Source: a virus (Duplodnaviria; Heunggongvirae; Uroviricota; Caudoviricetes). From it: 24,488 nucleotides of DNA. The translations under genes were made by a program, and so were the position numbers. Every line of letters starts with the position of its first letter. The first letter of the stretch is position 1. The notes beneath the pieces are model-generated. The model saw nothing but the letters and a program-made list of their open reading frames with translations, was not told the origin of the DNA and did not search any database. The stretch lies in the IMG/VR virus record IMGVR_UViG_2579779149_000006; one strand, written 5' to 3'. Positions 3,297 through 24,488 of this stretch are shown piece by piece.

Positions 3297-3495
3297 ATTT
3301 CCACCTTTAACATGAAATCTAATTCTAATTGATAGGTCTACTTAGTTTCGCTCATTGTACTATTTTATTAAAGTGGGTTGAAGGTTACATTTTTATATAG
3401 CATGTCTACTGTCCCTTTGTGGCACAGAGCGGACTGTCAGATTAGTTTTTACTCTGTGCCATAGATGAGTAATCTCACACCAGATCTAATACGAT

Positions 3496-4074
3496 TTATT
3501 GTGGCATTTCAGGCCATTCTATATCCGGAGCATCTTCCGGCTGAACGCGATTCAGTAGCACACGGTATTTTTTCCAGTGTGTCAGACTTAACTTTTCTTC
3601 CTCGGTAGCCATATCTAAATCGACAGCATCCTGCAGCGTGGCAATAATTTCACCTGCATATGCAATCAGCTCTTTCTTCTGAGAGTCAGCCGCTCTGACA
3701 AGCGCATCACGCTCTGCATTCTCATCATTCACCCACGCATTTCCGTTCCATTTCTGATAATCCCCATCCGGGGAAATGGCTGTCACGTCTGGAGGTAATG
3801 CGCCAAGTTCAGAAATATAAATGGCTGCTCCTGTTTTTGTTTCATAGACAGTCTTTCCACGATGGTCTTCCACCAGATCCCATTTCATTTCATCTGCATT
3901 GAAAACGGCGGCAAAACCCACCGGAATATCTGGAGGTGCAATGTCTGTACTGTTTGCAGGAAGACCTGTATGCGGCGGAATATATGCGTCACTTTCGCCA
4001 ATAAATTCATTGGTTCCATCAAGTAAATTGAAAACGCGGATAGTTTGTGTCTCTGCACTCATTCTGAAAGTCAT
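3496..4074 (-). CDS. G: tail fibre assembly chaperone (P2 gpG-like), 192 aa
   Basis: ATG at 4072-4074 overlaps the H stop (TAATG). Lies immediately downstream of the tail fibre gene. Sequence has typical Tfa features (N-terminal MxxxMSAET... and WNGNAWV). Confidence 0.85.
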
Positions 4075-14715: not shown

Positions 14716-16488
14716 ATGACCATCACCACAGACACCACTCTTTTACACGACCCGCGTCGTCAGGCGGCGCTGCTGTACTGGCAGGGGTTTTCCGTGCCGC
14801 AGATTGCCGCCATGTTGCAGATGAAACGCCCGACGGTGCAGAGCTGGAAACAGCGCGACGGCTGGGACAGCGTTGCCCCCATCAGCCGTGTCGAAATGAG
14901 TCTGGAAGCGCGGCTGACCCAGCTCATCATCAAACCGCAGAAAACCGGCGGTGACTTCAAGGAAATTGACCTGCTGGGACGCCAGATTGAACGACTGGCA
15001 CGGGTCAACCGCTACAGTCAGACCGGCAACGAGGCAGACCTTAATCCGAACGTCGCTAACCGCAACAAAGGCGGGCGCCGCAAACCGAAAAAGAATTTTT
15101 TCAGTGACGAGGCCATCGAAAAGCTGGAGCAGATTTTCTTTGAGCAGTCTTTCGACTATCAGTTGCACTGGTATCGCGCCGGGCTTGAGCACCGCATCCG
15201 CGATATCCTGAAATCCCGCCAGATTGGCGCGACGTTTTATTTTTCCCGCGAGGCGCTGCTGCGCGCCCTGAAAACCGGTCATAACCAGATTTTTCTGTCG
15301 GCCAGTAAAACGCAGGCGTATGTGTTCCGCGAATACATCATCGCCTTTGCCCGGCTGGTTGACGTTGACCTGACCGGTGACCCGATTGTCCTGGGCAATA
15401 ACGGCGCAAAACTGATTTTTCTCGGCACCAACTCCAACACCGCACAGAGCCATAACGGCGACCTGTACGTCGATGAGATTTTCTGGATCCCGAATTTTCA
15501 GGTACTGCGTAAGGTGGCATCAGGTATGGCCTCACAGAGTCACCTGCGCTCGACCTATTTCTCCACCCCGTCCACGCTGGCGCACGACGCCTACCCGTTC
15601 TGGTCGGGTGAACTGTTCAACCGGGGACGCGCCAGCGCCGCCGAACGCGTGGAAATCGACGTCAGTCATAACGCCCTTGCCGGTGGGCTTCTCTGTGCGG
15701 ACGGCCAGTGGCGGCAGATTGTCACCATTGAGGACGCGCTGAAAGGCGGCTGCACGCTGTTCGACATTGAGCAGCTCAAACGTGAAAACAGCGCCGACGA
15801 TTTTAAAAACCTGTTCATGTGTGAATTTGTTGACGACAAAGCGTCGGTGTTCCCGTTCGAGGAGCTGCAACGCTGCATGGTCGATACGCTGGAAGAATGG
15901 GAAGACTATGCACCGTTTGCCGCAAATCCGTTCGGCTCCCGCCCGGTATGGATTGGTTACGACCCGTCACACCGTGGCGACAGCGCCGGATGCGTGGTGC
16001 TGGCACCGCCGGTGGTGGCCGGTGGCAAATTCAGGATCCTTGAGCGTCACCAGTGGAAAGGCATGGACTTTGCCACCCAGGCAGAATCCATCCGCAAACT
16101 CACCGAAAAATATAACGTTGAATACATCGGGATTGATGCCACCGGCCTCGGTGTCGGTGTGTTCCAGCTCGTGCGCTCGTTCTATCCCGCCGCGCGCGAT
16201 ATCCGCTACACGCCGGAAATGAAAACCGCAATGGTGCTCAAGGCAAAAGACGTTATCCGCCGTGGCTGTCTGGAATATGACGTCAGCGCCACCGACATCA
16301 CCAGCTCGTTTATGGCTATCCGCAAGACCATGACCAGCAGCGGACGCAGCGCCACCTATGAGGCCAGCCGCAGCGAGGAAGCCAGCCACGCCGACCTCGC
16401 CTGGGCGACCATGCACGCCCTGTTAAATGAGCCACTCACCGCCGGTATCAGCACTCCGCTGACATCCACCATTCTGGAGTTTTACTGA
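14716..16488 (+). CDS. P: terminase large (ATPase) subunit P, 590 aa
   Basis: Start taken at MTITTDTT (internal ATG of ORF 14686..16488), giving 590 aa, as P2 P. Stop overlaps the Q start (TGATG). Confidence 0.9.
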   Translation: MTITTDTTLLHDPRRQAALLYWQGFSVPQIAAMLQMKRPTVQSWKQRDGWDSVAPISRVEMSLEARLTQLIIKPQKTGGDFKEIDLLGRQIERLARVNRYSQTGNEADLNPNVANRNKGGRRKPKKNFFSDEAIEKLEQIFFEQSFDYQLHWYRAGLEHRIRDILKSRQIGATFYFSREALLRALKTGHNQIFLSASKTQAYVFREYIIAFARLVDVDLTGDPIVLGNNGAKLIFLGTNSNTAQSHNGDLYVDEIFWIPNFQVLRKVASGMASQSHLRSTYFSTPSTLAHDAYPFWSGELFNRGRASAAERVEIDVSHNALAGGLLCADGQWRQIVTIEDALKGGCTLFDIEQLKRENSADDFKNLFMCEFVDDKASVFPFEELQRCMVDTLEEWEDYAPFAANPFGSRPVWIGYDPSHRGDSAGCVVLAPPVVAGGKFRILERHQWKGMDFATQAESIRKLTEKYNVEYIGIDATGLGVGVFQLVRSFYPAARDIRYTPEMKTAMVLKAKDVIRRGCLEYDVSATDITSSFMAIRKTMTSSGRSATYEASRSEEASHADLAWATMHALLNEPLTAGISTPLTSTILEFY

Positions 16489-17522
16489 TGAGCAAGAAAA
16501 AAGGGAAAACACCGCAACCTGCGGCAAAAACAATGACCGCCAGCGCCCCGAAAATGGAGGCATTCACCTTTGGCGAGCCGGTGCCGGTACTCGACCGCCG
16601 TGATATTCTGGATTACGTCGAGTGCATCAGTAACGGCAGATGGTATGAGCCGCCGGTCAGCTTTACCGGTCTGGCGAAAAGCCTGCGTGCTGCCGTGCAT
16701 CACAGCTCGCCGATTTACGTTAAACGCAATATTCTGGCTTCAACGTTTATTCCGCATCCGTGGCTTTCTCAGCAGGATTTCAGCCGCTTTGTGCTGGATT
16801 TTCTGGTGTTCGGCAATGCGTTTCTGGAAAAGCGTTACAGCACCACCGGCAAGGTCATCAGACTGGAAACCTCACCGGCAAAATATACCCGCCGTGGCGT
16901 GGAGGAGGATGTTTACTGGTGGGTGCCTTCCTTCAACGAGCCGACAGCCTTCGCACCTGGCTCCGTGTTTCATCTGCTGGAGCCGGATATTAATCAGGAG
17001 CTGTACGGCCTGCCGGAATATCTGAGCGCCCTTAATTCTGCCTGGCTGAATGAGTCAGCCACGCTGTTCCGCCGCAAGTATTACGAAAACGGCGCACATG
17101 CCGGATACATCATGTACGTCACCGATGCCGTGCAGGACCGCAACGATATCGAAATGCTTCGCGAAAACATGGTTAAGTCGAAAGGCCGCAATAACTTTAA
17201 AAATCTGTTTCTCTATGCACCACAGGGGAAAGCCGACGGCATTAAAATTATCCCGCTCAGTGAAGTGGCAACGAAGGACGATTTTTTTAATATCAAAAAA
17301 GCCAGTGCCGCTGACCTGCTGGACGCACACCGCATCCCCTTTCAGTTGATGGGTGGCAAGCCGGAGAACGTCGGGTCGCTGGGTGATATTGAGAAAGTGG
17401 CAAAGGTCTTTGTCCGCAATGAGCTTATCCCGTTACAGGACAGGATTCGGGAAATAAACGGCTGGCTTGGTCAGGAAGTCATCCGCTTTAAAAACTACTC
17501 ACTGGACACTGACAACGGCTGA
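16488..17522 (+). CDS. Q: portal (capsid vertex) protein Q, 344 aa
   Basis: ATG at 16488-16490. 344 aa, as P2 Q. Followed by a terminator and the cos region. Confidence 0.9.
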   Translation: MSKKKGKTPQPAAKTMTASAPKMEAFTFGEPVPVLDRRDILDYVECISNGRWYEPPVSFTGLAKSLRAAVHHSSPIYVKRNILASTFIPHPWLSQQDFSRFVLDFLVFGNAFLEKRYSTTGKVIRLETSPAKYTRRGVEEDVYWWVPSFNEPTAFAPGSVFHLLEPDINQELYGLPEYLSALNSAWLNESATLFRRKYYENGAHAGYIMYVTDAVQDRNDIEMLRENMVKSKGRNNFKNLFLYAPQGKADGIKIIPLSEVATKDDFFNIKKASAADLLDAHRIPFQLMGGKPENVGSLGDIEKVAKVFVRNELIPLQDRIREINGWLGQEVIRFKNYSLDTDNG

Positions 17523-17526
17523 ACAT

Positions 17527-17549
17527 CGCCGCCTGCGGGCGGCTTTTTT
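17527..17549 (+). terminator. rho-independent terminator after Q
   Basis: GC-rich hairpin GCCGCC-tgcg-GGCGGC followed by TTTTTT, immediately 3' of the Q stop. Confidence 0.6.
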
Positions 17550-17691
17550 ACACCCCGTCATCACGCACTCACACGCTCACCACCGCACAAAACACCCCGC
17601 AGACACACCAACGCCTCAACTGGCAGACTAAACGCCATCACGACGCGCTCAGACGCTGAAAAAATAAAATCAGCACCACCGCCAGCGCGCA

Positions 17692-17710
17692 GTGCTTTCC
17701 CCGCCTCGCC
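17692..17710. other. cos cohesive-end sequence (19-mer)
   Basis: GTGCTTTCCCCGCCTCGCC is the reverse complement of GGCGAGGCGGGGAAAGCAC, which I recall as the P2/186 19-nt cohesive end. It sits 170 bp past the portal gene, where P2 cos is expected. The match is from memory, not a database check. Confidence 0.55.
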
Positions 17711-17994
17711 CGCCCGCTTCACGTGGCGGTTTTAATGCAGTTGCATAGATACTATGGATCCGCACCAGTCCTGACCGCACGCAGCCTGAACGGACATCCC
17801 CAGCGCATGCAAAAACATTCACTTGTTGCATGCATAGCTTTTTAAGTACGCCATACCGCAACTGTACATTTTTAAGCAATTGGCAACTTTAAAAAATTTA
17901 CATTGCTTTCAAGACCTTATCATCCGTAGTCTCTGTTTTTTACTTTGAGCTACATCAATAAAATCTCAAACATGTTTAATGCAAAGCCCTTGTT

Positions 17995-18048
17995 ACACAA
18001 CATAGAATGTATGTCTAGAAACAACGACATACTATATGTTGTGTTTTT
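17995..18048 (+). terminator. long imperfect AT-rich hairpin followed by a T-run (terminator-like or structured RNA 3' end)
   Basis: Arms ACACAACATA (17995-18004) and TATGTC (18010-18015) pair with GACATA (18026-18031) and TATGTTGTGT (18035-18044); loop 18016-18025; followed by TTTT at 18045-18048. Confidence 0.3.
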
Positions 18049-18188
18049 CCGGCTCTCTGTTCGGTGATATGCCAAATCACTTTGCGTTTAAACAGAGCAT
18101 TATTTCAGGGCAAGACTTCGCTCAAAAGTCATTCCACCTAAGAAGCGCATATACCGGTGGAAGTTGCCCTCTACTTACAGGAGGCAAT

Positions 18189-18302
18189 ATGAAGAAATGC
18201 TATTACTGCATTCTCGTTCTGGCCCTCTTTGGCTATCCAAACGGTAGTCCGAGTGGTTTGTCAGTAAACGTCAGTAATATCAATGTCAGCATTATGCTTT
18301 AA
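18189..18302 (+). CDS. candidate small protein, 37 aa (MKKCYYCILVLALFGYPNGSPSGLSVNVSNINVSIML)
   Basis: ATG at 18189 preceded by a consensus AGGAGG (18179-18184, 4-nt spacer). Signal-peptide-like N-terminus. Stop followed within 12 nt by a strong terminator. The longer 88-aa ORF from 18036 begins on a non-ATG codon. Confidence 0.3.
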   Translation: MKKCYYCILVLALFGYPNGSPSGLSVNVSNINVSIML

Positions 18303-18314
18303 TATGCTTCAAAC

Positions 18315-18344
18315 AAAAAAACCACCTGCCAGGGTGGTTTTTTT
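18315..18344. terminator. bidirectional rho-independent terminator
   Basis: AAAAAAA-CCACCT-gcca-GGGTGG-TTTTTTT: a GC stem flanked by a 7-A run and a 7-T run. It can terminate the plus-strand small ORF and the leftward early operon coming out of A. Confidence 0.7.
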
Positions 18345-18604
18345 GCGCCCATCATCAATACGATGAAAGACTGACAAGACTTCGCTCAAGACGAATTATG
18401 CGTCGACATAAGGTTACCCGCAATGATTTTATTAGACTAAATGGATGGCCTTTTATGACCCGGATCAAACGGCTGTCCTTACCGACATGCTAGTCACTCA
18501 ATAGCATTTAGCCTTCTAATTCAGCATGCTATTGACCTTCTGCTGCCCCATAACTGCTCCGCATAAGCCATTCAATGCCATATCAAATCACGTTGTGTTT
18601 TTAC

Positions 18605-20881
18605 TCAAATGGGTAACGAGAACCCCGGCCACTCATCAGCAACCGGATACGTGAATTTTTTCCCGTCATAATTTACGGTCGCGCCACGCGCCAGCGCCTC
18701 AAGCTCCCATCGTTGCGGCCTGATACCGTTCTGAGCGAGGTCAACGCGGATACGGGTAATTTGCAATCGTTCAGACCTGGTCAGTCTGGCAGATGGTGCA
18801 ATTTCATGCGGTTTTAACGGGATTCCGTTTCTTTGCTGACGATTTGGTGTTCTCAGTCCGTGTTTTAATGCGCCCCTGAGCACCATCACGACCTCCGGGT
18901 CACTCCATTCGATAACACCGTCATCTACCAGATTAAGCACTGCTGCGGCGTGCTCAGAAGGTGTAGGAGCCGGTAACGAAGTATCACCACCGGTGAGCTT
19001 TCCACAGTTATTGACAGGACTCCGAGGCGCGGCGATGCCGCTTTTTAAAGTCAAAGGCTCAACGACCGGCACTTTCGGCACAATGCGCCAGTCCGTGGTT
19101 CTGGTGATATGAATATGACGCGCGCCGAGATGCGGTGCGTAAATGCCGACCACTCTCTCGACTTCTTCCTCGTACTCGTTAACGTCATCCGACGGGCTAC
19201 GGGCAACCCTGACAGTCTGACAATCGCGCGGGACATTTGCCCCACCCTGCGCGCTGATATACAACGCAAAATCACCACTGTCTGCGGCGGCGCGTGCAGC
19301 CTCGACGCGTTCGTCAAACTCATCAGCAATGCTGACGCCGCGAGGCAGTTTGCGTAGTTCACGGTAAGCCCCCATTGTCGGCAGGCCAACCGTTTTAAAT
19401 TGTGGGATACGCCACGTTGACGCCCATGCGGTAACAGCCGCAGCAGTGTCTTTCAGCGGTCTGCCGGTATCGTTATCGAGCTGACCATCCAGTGCATAGC
19501 CATCGATGTTTTTTGAGATGTATTTCGCGATATATCCCGCAGCACCGCCCCGGTTAAGGTGTTTTGCCTGAAAACGGTTTCGCGCGGCTCCTCTTTCGTC
19601 GCCATCCTCTTTGAGCGCATAACGACGCATGATTTCAATAATCTGGTTACGCTGGCGTGGATTACAAAAAAGCATCATATGCCAGTGCGGCGTTCCGTCG
19701 TGGTGTGGCTCGACGACACGCAAACCGTAGACCTGTAAATCATTATCCTTGAATGCCGTGCGCATCAGGCTCCAGATGCGGCAGAGATAACGCTGCGCAT
19801 CCTTTGGATTAAATGCCTCATCGTTCCAGCCGTGATTAAGCTGAACGGTTTTACTTTCGCCTTTTCTGACCTGGCGTGTCGGGTGATACTTTGACGGCGC
19901 GGTCAGCGTGATAAACATCCCCACATCACCCTCTGCGGCGGCGTAACGCTCAATACCGGCAATGGTGTTCATCAGCTCCATCCGGCGAATTTCAGGATTA
20001 GAAATACTGCCCATCACCTTACTGATAAGGTCGATGCGCTCGCCGGTTTCCCTGTTTTCAAGGTCACACGATTTAAGAAATTCCAGATTTGCCTGGCGGC
20101 GCGCACGCACATCACGAATGGCATGTTTACTGGCATAAGGAGAACGGTCTTTATTGACCTCCCCGACAGCAATCAGTAACGCCTCATGCCAGCGCATACG
20201 CTGGCCTTTAAGCTGATGAGTCCACCACTCATCGTTAAACAGACGGGCAATGGCAGAATATGCCTGCCTCGTGGTCATCTGTCCTTTACGGTATTTTTTC
20301 CAGTAGAGCGGGGAAATATTGAAAGCACGTGCAGCGCCAGCAACATGACCATACAGGTGAGCCTGCGCCTCATCCGTAAACAGCGATTCTTTTTCGCCAT
20401 GCGCATCCACCCAGGCATCGCAGAGTTCCTCATACATCATGAAAAGCTGCGATGAGATACGGGCTGCAAATTTTTTCAGCTCCTTGTCATTCATCCCCGG
20501 CAGACGCGCATAATGGTCACGCTCTGCCAGAAACAGCAACGACGCGTCGGTGTTCATTTCATGGCGCTGATTCACACGCTCAATGCGCGGCCATAAACGA
20601 CGCTGAAAAGTGGATGTGAGGAAATAAAACCCGTGCACCGGGCTTTTATTGCGCCGGATGTAGTCATAGCGTGAAGTAAACAGCGAGCGCAAAAAGTAAG
20701 GCAGGCGGTTAATCGTGGATAAAACACCTTGCACCTGACGCATCTCGTCACGTGTAAGGGGTCTTTCGCGCCCGACGGCCTCGCGTGGCGCGTTCCATGC
20801 ATAAGCACCGGTAAACGCCTTACCGGTGCCTGCAGCAAATGCTGAAGGAGGGACAAAACGCCCGGAGGCTTTAACGGCCAT
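18605..20881 (-). CDS. A: replication initiation protein A (rolling-circle HUH endonuclease), about 758 aa
   Basis: Start taken at ATG 20879-20881 (MAVKASGRF...); the track start at 20923 is TTG. HUH-type motif GTPHWHMMLF and a tyrosine pair AGYIAKYISK. Length close to P2 A (761 aa). Confidence 0.9.
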   Translation of the reverse strand: MAVKASGRFVPPSAFAAGTGKAFTGAYAWNAPREAVGRERPLTRDEMRQVQGVLSTINRLPYFLRSLFTSRYDYIRRNKSPVHGFYFLTSTFQRRLWPRIERVNQRHEMNTDASLLFLAERDHYARLPGMNDKELKKFAARISSQLFMMYEELCDAWVDAHGEKESLFTDEAQAHLYGHVAGAARAFNISPLYWKKYRKGQMTTRQAYSAIARLFNDEWWTHQLKGQRMRWHEALLIAVGEVNKDRSPYASKHAIRDVRARRQANLEFLKSCDLENRETGERIDLISKVMGSISNPEIRRMELMNTIAGIERYAAAEGDVGMFITLTAPSKYHPTRQVRKGESKTVQLNHGWNDEAFNPKDAQRYLCRIWSLMRTAFKDNDLQVYGLRVVEPHHDGTPHWHMMLFCNPRQRNQIIEIMRRYALKEDGDERGAARNRFQAKHLNRGGAAGYIAKYISKNIDGYALDGQLDNDTGRPLKDTAAAVTAWASTWRIPQFKTVGLPTMGAYRELRKLPRGVSIADEFDERVEAARAAADSGDFALYISAQGGANVPRDCQTVRVARSPSDDVNEYEEEVERVVGIYAPHLGARHIHITRTTDWRIVPKVPVVEPLTLKSGIAAPRSPVNNCGKLTGGDTSLPAPTPSEHAAAVLNLVDDGVIEWSDPEVVMVLRGALKHGLRTPNRQQRNGIPLKPHEIAPSARLTRSERLQITRIRVDLAQNGIRPQRWELEALARGATVNYDGKKFTYPVADEWPGFSLPI

Positions 20882-21146
20882 ATGAGCCAAAAGCCTCTGA
20901 ACAACGCCTGCTGAGTTGCTCAACCTGCGCGTTTAAATCAGCAAAAGACTTTGCGCTTCCGGTCAGAATATCGTGATGCATCAGGCCGGAAACGAGCTGG
21001 CTTAATTTCGGATAATAACCAACCACCGCCAGCCATTCCTGACCGGCGTTTTTACCGCTTTCCGCTCTCTTTTTCTCGTGGAGAATAAACTGAAAGCTGT
21101 CACTGGTAACGACATAACGTTCGCCAATTTCAATACGAATACTCAT
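20871..21146 (-). CDS. small early protein (P2 orf83 position), 91 aa
   Basis: ATG at 21144-21146. Overlaps the A start by 11 nt and the upstream gene stop. Call based on synteny. Confidence 0.55.
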   Translation of the reverse strand: MSIRIEIGERYVVTSDSFQFILHEKKRAESGKNAGQEWLAVVGYYPKLSQLVSGLMHHDILTGSAKSFADLNAQVEQLSRRCSEAFGSYGR

Positions 21147-21956: not shown

Positions 21957-22457
21957 TTAATGCAAATATTGCTCTGGTTTTACCGACGTCAGAATTGTCG
22001 GCGCATACTCAAACAGGCTGAATAATTCACGTAATGCACGGAATAAAGCATCACGCCAGTAACATGACTCTTCATTAATTTGCCAGTATGGCTGGTTGAA
22101 TTCTTTTTCAGTCAATCCGGCATGCATAAATAAAGTACGACGCTGACTGACTGTTAAAAAACTAATATATGCATATTCACTTGCGCCAACCTGACGGCGT
22201 TTTGAGAATGCCCCACGCAATTCATCAATTGCACAAACCAGCCGTTCACGTTCGACGTCGTTCATTTCTTCAAAACGCATCGTTGCATGACGTTGTTTTA
22301 ACTGCGCATGAAAGCAAACTGTTAGCCGTTCGCGCTCCATCATCTGATTATAATAATCACATGTATCCTGCCAGCGAGGGACGGCAAGATGCTTACCAAT
22401 TATCCGGCGCATAGCTGCTGGCTGTTTTTCAACGAGATTAAGCGTCATCACTGTCAT
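21957..22457 (-). CDS. B: replication protein B (helicase-loader-like), 166 aa
   Basis: 166 aa, exactly as P2 B. Position between cox side and A. Start overlaps the upstream ORF stop. Confidence 0.8.
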   Translation of the reverse strand: MTVMTLNLVEKQPAAMRRIIGKHLAVPRWQDTCDYYNQMMERERLTVCFHAQLKQRHATMRFEEMNDVERERLVCAIDELRGAFSKRRQVGASEYAYISFLTVSQRRTLFMHAGLTEKEFNQPYWQINEESCYWRDALFRALRELFSLFEYAPTILTSVKPEQYLH

Positions 22458-22624
22458 TTCCAGACCCTCCGGCTTTTCAGAAAGGTCAGAGCCTTCTTTA
22501 ACGGACTCTGTTTTTTGGTGCGGATAATGATTCCCTTACGCCCCTTACCGTGGGTGATGGTGAAGTCAATCGCCCTGGGGCTTTCGTTACGCAATAACTG
22601 AGCAATACAACGAGGCTCGTTCAT
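22454..22624 (-). CDS. hypothetical small basic protein (P2 orf78 position), about 56 aa
   Basis: ATG at 22622-22624 with AGGTGG 6 nt upstream, 10 nt after the cox stop. The longer ORF to 22714 would overlap cox by 80 nt. Confidence 0.35.
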   Translation of the reverse strand: MNEPRCIAQLLRNESPRAIDFTITHGKGRKGIIIRTKKQSPLKKALTFLKSRRVWK

Positions 22625-22634
22625 CCTTTCCACC

Positions 22635-23006
22635 TTAAGCCGCACGGCCATGTCTTGATTTGCTGTAACTAATGCGATTTTTCCAGTCATGCCATTCTGT
22701 CGGAGCTTCATCAACTAGCTGGGCTGCGTACTTGTCCCACTCACGGCGATTAATCCATAATTCAGCTTTCCCTCTTGGTTTTAATGGGTCTGTCATGTAG
22801 AAGGCTGGCAGCTTTCCTGCTTTAGCCATTTCAGCCACCGCGCGTGGTGTCTTACCGATGTAAAGAGCAAAACCTTCTTTCGACAGCAAATCAGATGGGC
22901 GCTCTGAAATCTGAATGCTTTTACGTTTGGCTTCATTTTCGAAACTTGCCTCATCGCTAGTTGGACAAGAAATTTCTACATTTGTCGTCACTTTGCTATC
23001 CTCCAT
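22635..23006 (-). CDS. cox: Cox-like excisionase / early-promoter regulator, 123 aa
   Basis: ATG at 23004-23006. HTH-like segment GFALYIGKTPRAVAEMAKAGKLPAFYMTDP, resembling the P2 Cox core. First gene of the leftward early operon, divergent from C. Longer than P2 Cox (91 aa). Confidence 0.6.
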   Translation of the reverse strand: MEDSKVTTNVEISCPTSDEASFENEAKRKSIQISERPSDLLSKEGFALYIGKTPRAVAEMAKAGKLPAFYMTDPLKPRGKAELWINRREWDKYAAQLVDEAPTEWHDWKNRISYSKSRHGRAA

Positions 23007-23099
23007 AAGATTTGCGATTCACCAACTGGAGCCATCTAGAGCCTTTTTGAGCGAATCACAAATTGCCAAGTAACAATATAATTGGAGATTAGCAAAATT
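23007..23099. promoter_or_regulatory. divergent Pe/Pc immunity control region with candidate direct-repeat operators
   Basis: 93 bp between the divergent cox and C starts. Imperfect 9-bp direct repeats GCGATTCAC (23014-23022) and GCGAATCAC (23051-23059). Perfect TATAAT at 23077-23082 on the plus strand. P2-type C repressors bind direct repeats. Confidence 0.45.
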
Positions 23100-23399
23100 A
23101 TGTCAAGTGAACAAAGTGAGAAACTAAAGCTCATCCGTGAATCCGAACGCCTTAAAACTAAGGAACTTGCTGAATTGATTGGAATTAATTACTACACATA
23201 TCATGGATATGAATCAGGAAAATCAAAAATGCCTATGGAAGCAGGTATGAAGCTGTTTAAGCATCCACGCTTTCGCAAGTATCGTGACTGGTTCATGTTT
23301 GATGAAACAGATCCAGCAGCTGGACAAATAGCCCCGGCTCTCGCACACATTGGGCAAGACTCAACAACCTTGCACCACTCAGACCAGAAGACTGGCTGA
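23100..23399 (+). CDS. C: immunity repressor C, 99 aa
   Basis: Start taken at ATG 23100 (MSSEQSEKLK...); the track start at 23082 is TTG. 99 aa, as P2 C. HTH-like segment TKELAELIGINYYTYHGYESGK. Transcribed towards int. Confidence 0.75.
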   Translation: MSSEQSEKLKLIRESERLKTKELAELIGINYYTYHGYESGKSKMPMEAGMKLFKHPRFRKYRDWFMFDETDPAAGQIAPALAHIGQDSTTLHHSDQKTG

Positions 23400-23492: not shown

Positions 23493-24488
23493 ATGTCTAT
23501 TAAAAAGCTCGATGATGGTCGTTATGAAGTGGACGTCAGACCGCAGGGTGCAGATGGAAAACGTATCAGGCGGAAATTTAAAACTAAAGGTGAAGCTCAA
23601 GCATTCGAACGTCATGTACTGGTTAACTACCACAACAAAGAGTGGTTGGAGAAACCAGCCGACCGCCGAACTCTTACAGAGTTGTTAGGCAGATGGTGGA
23701 TATATCACGGAAAATCACATGAGCGTGGAGATATTGAACGGGGGCGTTTAACGACAATAATCGCCAAATTTGCAGAAATGGGAGTGTCCAGAGCTGACCA
23801 GCTAACAAAGAAAACGATAACTGATTATCGCGTTGTAATGATGAACGATGGTCTGAAACCAGCCAGCGTAAATCGACATCTGGCAATAATGAGCGGGATG
23901 TTCACCAAGTTAATTGACGCCGGTGAATACCACTCTCACAACCCGTTCCGTGAGATTAAACGGTTACGTGAAGCTGTTACGGAAATGGCTTTTTTGTCCA
24001 GTGAAGAGATTACGCGGCTGTTATCCATGCTTGATGGTGATGAATTAAATGCAACTCTGGTCTGCCTTTCTACTGGTGGACGCTGGAGTGAAGTGTCTAA
24101 TTTAAAAGCTGAACATATCATTAACCAGATGGTTACGTTTATGAAAACTAAAAACGGAAAACGCAGGACAATTCCCGTTTCGCAGGACCTGATTAAACGG
24201 ATCAAGACCAAAAATTCAGGCAGGCTTTTTAATGCCAGTTACTACAAAGTGCGTAACGCTCTCAGGGAAGTAAAACCCGATTTACCTGACGGACAAGCAG
24301 TACATGTTTTGAGGCATACATTTGCCACACATTTTATAATGAATGGAGGTAACATAATCACATTGCAGCGCATCCTGGGTCATTCTAACATTCAGCAAAC
24401 TATGACCTACGCACACTTTGCACCGGATTTCTTACAAGATGCTGTGACTCTTAACCCGGTGTCAGGAATGTCCATAATGCGTCCATAA
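23493..24488 (+). CDS. int: tyrosine integrase (P2 Int-like), 331 aa
   Basis: Catalytic-domain signatures VLRHTFATHF and LGHSNIQQTMTYAHF (R, H-x-x-R, Y). Directly downstream of C as in P2. Stop TAA is the last 3 nt of the window, so the att site is off-window. Confidence 0.9.
   Translation: MSIKKLDDGRYEVDVRPQGADGKRIRRKFKTKGEAQAFERHVLVNYHNKEWLEKPADRRTLTELLGRWWIYHGKSHERGDIERGRLTTIIAKFAEMGVSRADQLTKKTITDYRVVMMNDGLKPASVNRHLAIMSGMFTKLIDAGEYHSHNPFREIKRLREAVTEMAFLSSEEITRLLSMLDGDELNATLVCLSTGGRWSEVSNLKAEHIINQMVTFMKTKNGKRRTIPVSQDLIKRIKTKNSGRLFNASYYKVRNALREVKPDLPDGQAVHVLRHTFATHFIMNGGNIITLQRILGHSNIQQTMTYAHFAPDFLQDAVTLNPVSGMSIMRP

Follow-up and report, generated by a model that had tools for sequence, protein, structure and literature searches.

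Gene content and organization of the switch region

The right end of the window (the whole stretch of DNA analysed here, 24,488 nucleotides) is the regulatory end, the lysis/lysogeny switch, of a Peduovirus (P2-like) prophage, and it lies in reversed orientation relative to the P2 map (Table 1). The int and C genes are transcribed away from cox, orf78, B and A, and the early promoter Pe adjoins C, which is the arrangement of a P2-type switch. Both the gene order and the offsets of Pe match the annotated P2 record, and the window's last position, 24488, is the end of the int stop codon. A preliminary description, made from the sequence alone, had called the int-C-cox block visibly richer in AT than the replication genes. 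This holds against gene A (GC 0.534, compared with 0.436 for int, 0.430 for C, 0.457 for cox and 0.366 for the C-cox spacer), but not against B (0.433) or the orf80-83 region (0.459), which are equally AT-rich.

Start annotations of orf78 (region 22454-22714 of the window) disagree among records: the protein is given as 56 aa in P2, D8 and RefSeq and as 65 aa in pro483, pro147 and S164, and the longer version overlaps the 3' end of cox.

Table 1. Genes and candidate regulatory elements of the switch region, in window coordinates.
Feature	Position	Strand	Remarks
Gene A	18605-20923	-	
Small orf80-83-like genes	between A and B	-	
B	21957-22457	-	
orf78 homologue, 56 aa	22454-22624	-	position and length as P2 orf78
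Cox ORF, 123 aa as annotated	22635-23006	-	Pfam Phage_Cox
cox, most likely 118 aa	22635-22991	-	GTG at 22991-22989
Cox N-terminal extension	22899-22991	-	about 31 residues before PSDLLSKEGF
cox ribosome-binding site, GGAGGA	22999-23004	-	read from sequence
9-bp repeat copy 1, GCGATTCAC	23014-23022	+	
Possible fourth phased box, TTCACCAAC	23017-23025	+	
Three 10-bp-phased direct repeats, CTGGAGCCA, CTAGAGCCT, TTTGAGCGA	23026-23054	+	candidate Cox boxes: CTGGAGCC (23026), CTAGAGCC (23036), TTTGAGCG (23046)
9-bp repeat copy 2, GCGAATCAC	23051-23059	+	overlaps third phased box
O2, TGCCAAGT-AACAA	23064-23076	+	candidate C half-site, over predicted Pe start site
Predicted Pe start	about 23071	-	
TATAAT	23077-23082	+	overlaps Pe -10 on the opposite strand
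Pe -10, AATTAT	23078-23083	-	17 bp from -35
C, immunity repressor, 99 aa	23100-23399	+	P2 C homology, PDB 2XCJ/2L49
Pe -35, TTGACA	23101-23106	-	consensus scan; overlaps C codons 1-2
O1, TGTCAAGTGAACAA	23101-23114	+	candidate C half-site, over Pe -35 and first five C codons
int, tyrosine integrase, 331 aa	23493-24488	+	Pfam Int_N and Phage_integrase

A P2-type repressor outside P2 immunity class I

C has the length of P2 C, as the preliminary description had stated, and is 51% identical to it over all 99 residues. The solved structure of P2 C (2XCJ/2L49) is matched at E 1e-25, and the protein combines an N-terminal helix-turn-helix with the conserved C-terminal GQIAPALA motif, the features of a P2-type repressor. 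A TTG-started C of 105 aa has also been deposited in databases. The locus is of the C type: CI of phage 186 is twice the size of C and unrelated to it (PMC3448106).

P2-type C proteins have been sorted into ten immunity classes (Nilsson et al., 2011; PMC3448106), and the criterion quoted for membership of one class is at least 95% C identity (PMC3448106). The C encoded here falls well below this value relative to P2 C, its recognition-helix region differs, and the P2 half-site ATCTAAAC is absent from the C-cox spacer. The locus is therefore not a member of P2 immunity class I, and the earlier suggestion of an immunity specificity distinct from that of P2 is supported. The phage of the HQ103 paper (PMC10321612) is likewise P2-like, but its repressor gene, of 294 bp, is a different one.

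Relatives and integration site

The 1.1 kb module is 99.9% identical at the DNA level to that of phage pro483 and 98.5-99.3% identical to those of P24E6b, D8, 12W, 11W, vB_YpM_46 and P24A7b. Of 5,426 complete E. coli genomes, 141 contain it at an identity of at least 99%, and the exact Cox protein was found on at least 1,000 contigs. Protein searches showed that Cox proteins of 115-140 aa are widespread in Enterobacterales. The seven phages and the matching E. coli prophages carry the same genes in this module, and they differ from it in nothing of substance; the annotated lengths of Cox (118 or 123 aa) and C (99 or 105 aa) disagree among them. Because the module occurs in sequenced phages and in many E. 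coli genomes, it does not represent a new specificity: judged by sequence identity, this immunity type has already been sequenced many times.

In E. coli, identical prophages are integrated beside pflA, a site that we take to be position 950293 of MG1655. PhiD145, PhiD160 and PhiECA29 have been placed at this MG1655 position (Nilsson et al., 2011; PMC3448106). We infer that the prophage site beside pflA is the attachment site of PhiD145 (AM158280, AM159077) and PhiD160 (AM159075). In E. coli CE0011b (contig L002), whose prophage is identical to that of the window, the att core lies in the first pflA codons and the host ATG reads AAG in the lysogen (3387-3500 of the contig). A phage-borne ATG (3421) adds about 19 codons (MSNLTNCNTTENTATAGATK...) to PflA, which is why pflA is annotated there as 798 bp.

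For comparative analysis, relatives were gathered as six loci from a single-protein scan of genome contigs and five via exact-protein look-ups. The aligned relatives comprise YpM117, pro147, S164, E. albertii, Scandinavium and Pseudescherichia, along with one E. hormaechei, one C. freundii and two metagenomic contigs. Two entries (L010 and L012) duplicate others, and one (L018) is almost identical to the window. On this last contig (metagenomic ERR3329270_69, positions 701-1772) the near-identical C/cox module has cox joined directly to a gene A homologue and lacks orf78, B and orf80-83; it may be a deleted or defective prophage.

Cox carries a genuine N-terminal tail and probably starts at a GTG

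Cox belongs to the Phage_Cox family (Pfam PF10743; E 3e-29, 101.1 bits against a cut-off of 27.5, residues 31-111), and a profile of long Cox homologues matches the P2 Cox structure 4LHF (E 2.7e-8). About 30 residues precede the Pfam domain. AlphaFold2 modelling with 53 homologues returned pLDDT values below 50 for residues 1-24 and a confident fold from residue 35 on, with a strand, two helices, two further strands and a long helix over residues 35-107 (pLDDT 83-93), that is, a winged helix-turn-helix body with a C-terminal helix. Cox proteins of "Group 2" have been described as "larger" than those of the P2 group, with the predicted winged helix kept (Nilsson et al., 2011; PMC3448106), and the Cox of Pectobacterium SCRI1043, the host strain of PhiECA29, is among the long homologues.

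Among the relatives, the Cox body from PSDLLSKEGF on is nearly invariant and the preceding residues, about 30 in number, are highly variable in a frame that is always open. In three genomes saturated at synonymous sites the extension shows a dN/dS of 0.13-0.38; the value for the body, estimable in one pair only, is 0.04. Since the extension remains open and has a dN/dS of this order, it is translated and weakly constrained. The "long acidic" extension of the preliminary description is thus genuine (open, under purifying selection and predicted to be disordered), but it is only mildly acidic: it holds six acidic and four basic residues, with an acidic stretch over the first 20 or so followed by a KRK patch.

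An untranslated extension, with an internal start yielding a Cox of about 91 aa as in P2, is what the preliminary description had named as counting against its proposal. The 90-91 aa of the P2 and Wphi Cox proteins and the predicted disorder of the tail would be in keeping with such a start, yet we consider it very improbable. No conserved ATG, GTG or TTG with a ribosome-binding site occurs near residue 30, and the window's TTG at L40 is TTA in YpM117. The frame stays open through some 30 highly diverged codons in every lineage, and dN/dS in the extension is well below 1.

Where translation of the extension begins can be narrowed by comparison. A 123-aa ORF of the Cox family does exist, as first described, but the protein is more likely to be 118 aa long; it probably begins at the GTG at 22991, the annotated start being over-called by five codons. 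This GTG lies 7 nt after GGAGGA, and all relatives conserve the string GAGGATA(G/T)CAAA with a start codon behind it. In 13 of 13 long-Cox genomes examined, the codon homologous to 22991 is ATG, GTG or TTG: ATG in YpM117, pro147, S164, E. albertii (L010), S. manionii (L011), S. lactucae (L012) and Pseudescherichia (L014); GTG in the window, L018 and S. hiltneri (L013); and TTG in L016, L017, L019 and L020. Gene callers picked the equivalent of 22991 in L018, L020 and Scandinavium, and both the 118-aa and the 123-aa protein have been deposited in public databases.

The alternative is that Cox has its annotated 123 aa and starts at the ATG at 23006. The gene is given as 372 nt by PGAP and in phage records, the MQDEAKT... 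start of distant relatives aligns loosely with MEDSKVT, and the upstream ATG is always present where the 22991 site is GTG or TTG. We nevertheless regard this longer form as the distinctly less probable one. The upstream ATG is missing in YpM117, E. albertii, pro147 and S. manionii. It also has no ribosome-binding site before it, because GGAGGA begins inside that ATG, whereas the downstream codon is always a valid start, 7 nt after a ribosome-binding site, and is the one that callers aware of ribosome-binding sites take.

We consider it unlikely that the tail of the long Cox is a functional regulatory appendage whose sequence tracks the immunity cassette through class-specific partners and not through mere adjacency. 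If it were, it might tune filament formation on the boxes described below as an autoinhibitory mimic of DNA, or offer a contact surface for Int or C.

The early promoter and the TATAAT hexamer

A consensus scan placed the early promoter Pe on the cox strand as TTGACA-17-AATTAT (23106-23078, 10/12). In the annotated P2 record, the Pe -35 begins one base inside the C ATG and the -10 is found 17-22 nt ahead of that ATG; the offsets in the window are identical to these. The -35 TTGACA is invariant in all relatives, and at the -10 position the relatives show TATTCT or TAATTT, as read from the sequence. From here, Pe would fire leftwards into cox-orf78-B-A, and the 99-aa C would shut it.

The preliminary description had pointed to a perfect TATAAT in the C-cox interval. 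The hexamer is present, but on the strand opposite to Pe and over its -10, and it is best explained as the opposite-strand image of the AT-rich Pe -10. A different reading would make it the -10 of the promoter for C, Pc, so that Pc and Pe would stand back-to-back with overlapping -10 boxes and not be convergent as in P2 and Wphi. The consensus scan pairs the hexamer with ATCACA at 16-bp spacing, the sole 10/12 match on the + strand; within the class the hexamer does not vary, and relatives have TTGCCA or TTGCAA upstream; and neither the scan nor a manual search yielded a convincing sigma-70 promoter closer to cox. Several observations nonetheless make a Pc at this position doubtful. The -35 partner varies, same-class relatives having TTGCNN at 15-bp spacing, and the hexamer lies within the invariant Pe block, so its conservation is uninformative. 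A Pc start near 23089, about 7 nt downstream of TATAAT, would drop the GGAG at 23084-23087, and all classes, P2 included, conserve a GGAG/GAG element 12-16 nt ahead of the C ATG. Finally, the Pc promoters of P2 and Wphi are convergent with Pe (PMC1904263).

Between the cox start and the phased boxes, consensus scanning and inspection by eye gave no convincing Pc. Three candidates (TTGCGA-17-TCTAGA, TTGTCG-18-TAAGAT and the extended -10 TGCTATCCT at 22994-23002) were rejected or left open by eye: their hexamers lack the key A2/T6, or their partners are not conserved, and conservation of TGCTATCCT is confounded by the cox ribosome-binding site.

Two further features of the spacer were recorded. 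A 33-nt inverted repeat, 73% complementary, joins window positions 22973-23005 and 23083-23115, and the translation-initiation region of cox (GGAGGATAGCAAAGTG) nearly mirrors that of C (GGAGATTAGCAAAATTATG) across the spacer. The cox leader (22992-23032; CATAAGATTTGC..TTCACCAACT.GAGC) hardly varies among same-class genomes with saturated synonymous sites, and is more conserved than the middle of the spacer.

Phased repeats in the spacer and beside attP as candidate Cox boxes

The best direct repeat in the spacer is a set of three boxes phased at 10 bp (score 8.5, reached in 43 of 1,000 shuffles). They lie at the same distance from the C ATG as the cox-boxes of P2, and they are kept in heteroimmune relatives with the same Cox body, for example as ATCTAGAGCG/ATTTAGAGTC or TTAGAGCC/TTAGAGTC/TTAGCGCC. 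A similar array stands at attP, where 90 bp separate the int stop from the att core: the 30-mer directly after the int stop reads CCAGAGTTAA CTAGAGCCAA TTGAAGCGAT, and its single best match in the window is the phased boxes (20/30, rank 1 of 48,918 positions), giving CCAGAGTT/CTAGAGCC/TTGAAGCG as the array in the attP arm. The 8-mer CTAGAGCC that spacer and attP share is not significant by itself, since 56% of shuffles share some 8-mer, and it is informative only as part of the 30-nt phased array.

The P2 cox-box has the consensus TTAAA(G/C)NC(A/C), and its 9-bp boxes are phased by 10-11 bp in the Pc region and at attP (PMC3936717). The motif found here is close to this consensus and has the 10-11 bp phasing, with three and possibly four boxes where P2 has at least six. 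The two arrays are probably Cox boxes. Cox would bind the boxes at 23026-23054 and the similar array beside attP, and by binding both it would couple excision to repression of the C operon, as happens in P2.

The last int codons (24468-24488) contain the tandem TGTCCATAA / GCGTCCATAA, which on the other strand is similar to the arm-site consensus of P2-type Int, tgTGGaCa; in P2, too, the P' arm site overlaps the 3' end of int.

The 9-bp direct repeats are not maintained in relatives

As operators of C, the preliminary description had proposed two 9-bp imperfect direct repeats, GCGATTCAC and GCGAATCAC. These are indeed present in the spacer, 37 bp apart and alike at 8 of 9 positions, and are found nowhere else in the window. 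That they are C half-sites is suggested by the direct repeats, of varied spacing, that P2-family repressors bind (PMC2995052, PMC1904263), by an extension of the pair to 12 of 15 positions, and by the location of copy 1 in a class-conserved block. A direct 9-mer pair with at most one mismatch occurs, however, in 28% of dinucleotide shuffles of the 93-bp spacer, and 15% of shuffles do as well as the 15-bp extension. Relative to the predicted Pe start, the two copies fall downstream, near +12 and +49, and copy 2 overlaps a phased box. The block around copy 1 is otherwise invariant in the class, but positions 3-4 of the copy itself vary.

The evidence that weighs most comes from three genomes (L016, L017 and L020) in which C equals that of the window over residues 1-69 except for E47D, and in which synonymous sites are saturated. 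With the DNA-binding half of C nearly identical, copy 1 reads GCAATTCAC, GCATTTCAC or GCACTTCAC and copy 2 reads GTGAATTGC, so that the copies match each other at only 4 of 9 positions (5-7 of 15). The pair decays in same-class relatives and is therefore not maintained as a pair. The preliminary description had held that absence of the repeats from homologous operators would count against them, and their decay in these three genomes does so. A role as operators of C is accordingly improbable.

Candidate C half-sites bracketing Pe

A second direct repeat, TGYCAAGT(G)AACAA, is formed by two segments (O1 and O2) that also lie 37 bp apart and bracket Pe. When the start of C was compared with the upstream spacer, the best match fell at an offset of 37-38 in seven of nine long-Cox genomes; among three later additions, the near-identical L018 likewise has it at 37, and L019 and L020 do not. 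In P2 and Wphi, the best self-match of the C start is not at this offset. The sequence of the pair changes with the class, for example to TATCAACT/TGTCAACT or TGTCGCATACA/TGTCAAATACA. In addition, the first 15 nt of C show no synonymous change in three diverged same-class genomes, while later 15-nt bins of C hold 0-5 synonymous changes each, about 2.6 on average.

Taken singly, O1/O2 matches do not reach significance against shuffles (14 of 300 at best), and L017 and L020 retain O2 only in part. O1 of L020 finds its best partner in the region of the third box, so boxes and half-sites may be entangled. The conservation of C codons 1-5 could also reflect the Pe -35 and an upstream element and not an operator. 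The evidence is suggestive and not conclusive, and we regard O1 and O2 as probable candidates for the C half-sites. C would then bind O1, over the -35 and the first C codons, and O2, over the start site, and not the GCGAWTCAC repeats. In YpM117, pro147 and L011 a possible third copy of the half-site appears near -85; in the window it was not convincing.

A model of the switch and comparison with other phages

We give a probability of about 0.7 to a model in which this is a P2-type switch where C would act through O1 and O2, not through the GCGAWTCAC repeats, and a long Cox of 118 aa would act on the phased boxes. The "long" Cox would consist of a P2 Cox-like winged-helix body behind a fast-evolving, disordered, acidic-then-basic tail of about 30 residues. 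In sequence comparison with related phages, the operator and promoter calls of the preliminary description fail. The switch at the locus is of P2 type and of a non-P2 immunity class; it is ordinary and already sequenced, and its long Cox has a genuine tail. Its value as a discovery is small, as a common, deposited P2-like immunity type whose larger Cox is already on record. Its practical value lies in the likely corrected Cox start, the mapped Pe, and the candidate Cox boxes and C half-sites. We found no experimental dissection of a switch of this type, whereas those of P2 and Wphi have been dissected.

The P2 switch (immunity class I) shares with the window the gene order, the 99-aa C, the Pe offsets and the offset of the boxes. 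The spacers are also similar in length, at 114 bp in P2 and, in the window, 93 bp from the annotated cox ATG or 108 bp from the GTG. The differences lie in protein identity (C 51%, Cox 35% over the domain, Int 53%) and in the additional Cox tail of about 30 residues. The ATCTAAAC half-sites, 22 bp apart in P2, have no counterpart in the spacer, and a TATAAT is missing from the position of the P2 Pc. Wphi has a Cox of 90 aa and a spacer of 152 bp, and its half-site GTCACCAATA is unrelated.

A P2-type C binds direct repeats around Pe that are not palindromic. The repressor half-sites lie 22 bp apart in P2 and 34 bp apart in Wphi, and in Hy dis the distance is 2.5 turns (PMC2995052, PMC1904263). 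The Hy dis direct repeats span the Pe -35, and both the spacing of the repeats and their position around Pe vary by class (PMC2995052, PMC1904263). The 37 bp proposed for O1 and O2 fit the range of Wphi and Hy dis. In phage 186, Apl serves both as excisionase and as regulator, and its binding sites are phased direct repeats that lie between the promoters and also at att (PMC7498355); the dual role proposed here for Cox, with phased repeats at both places, is similar.

Two observations concern the wider region. Yersinia phage vB_YpM_117 carries an insert of about 480 bp in the cox-orf78 interval (L006, 1526-2018) with two ORFs of 59 and 63 aa, and the window lacks this insert. Window positions 17522-18605, between a 344-aa ORF (16488-17522) and gene A, form a gap of about 1.1 kb with a GC near 0.39 and without an ORF of 90 aa or more; its counterpart in P2 is the location of cos and of the tin/old cargo genes.
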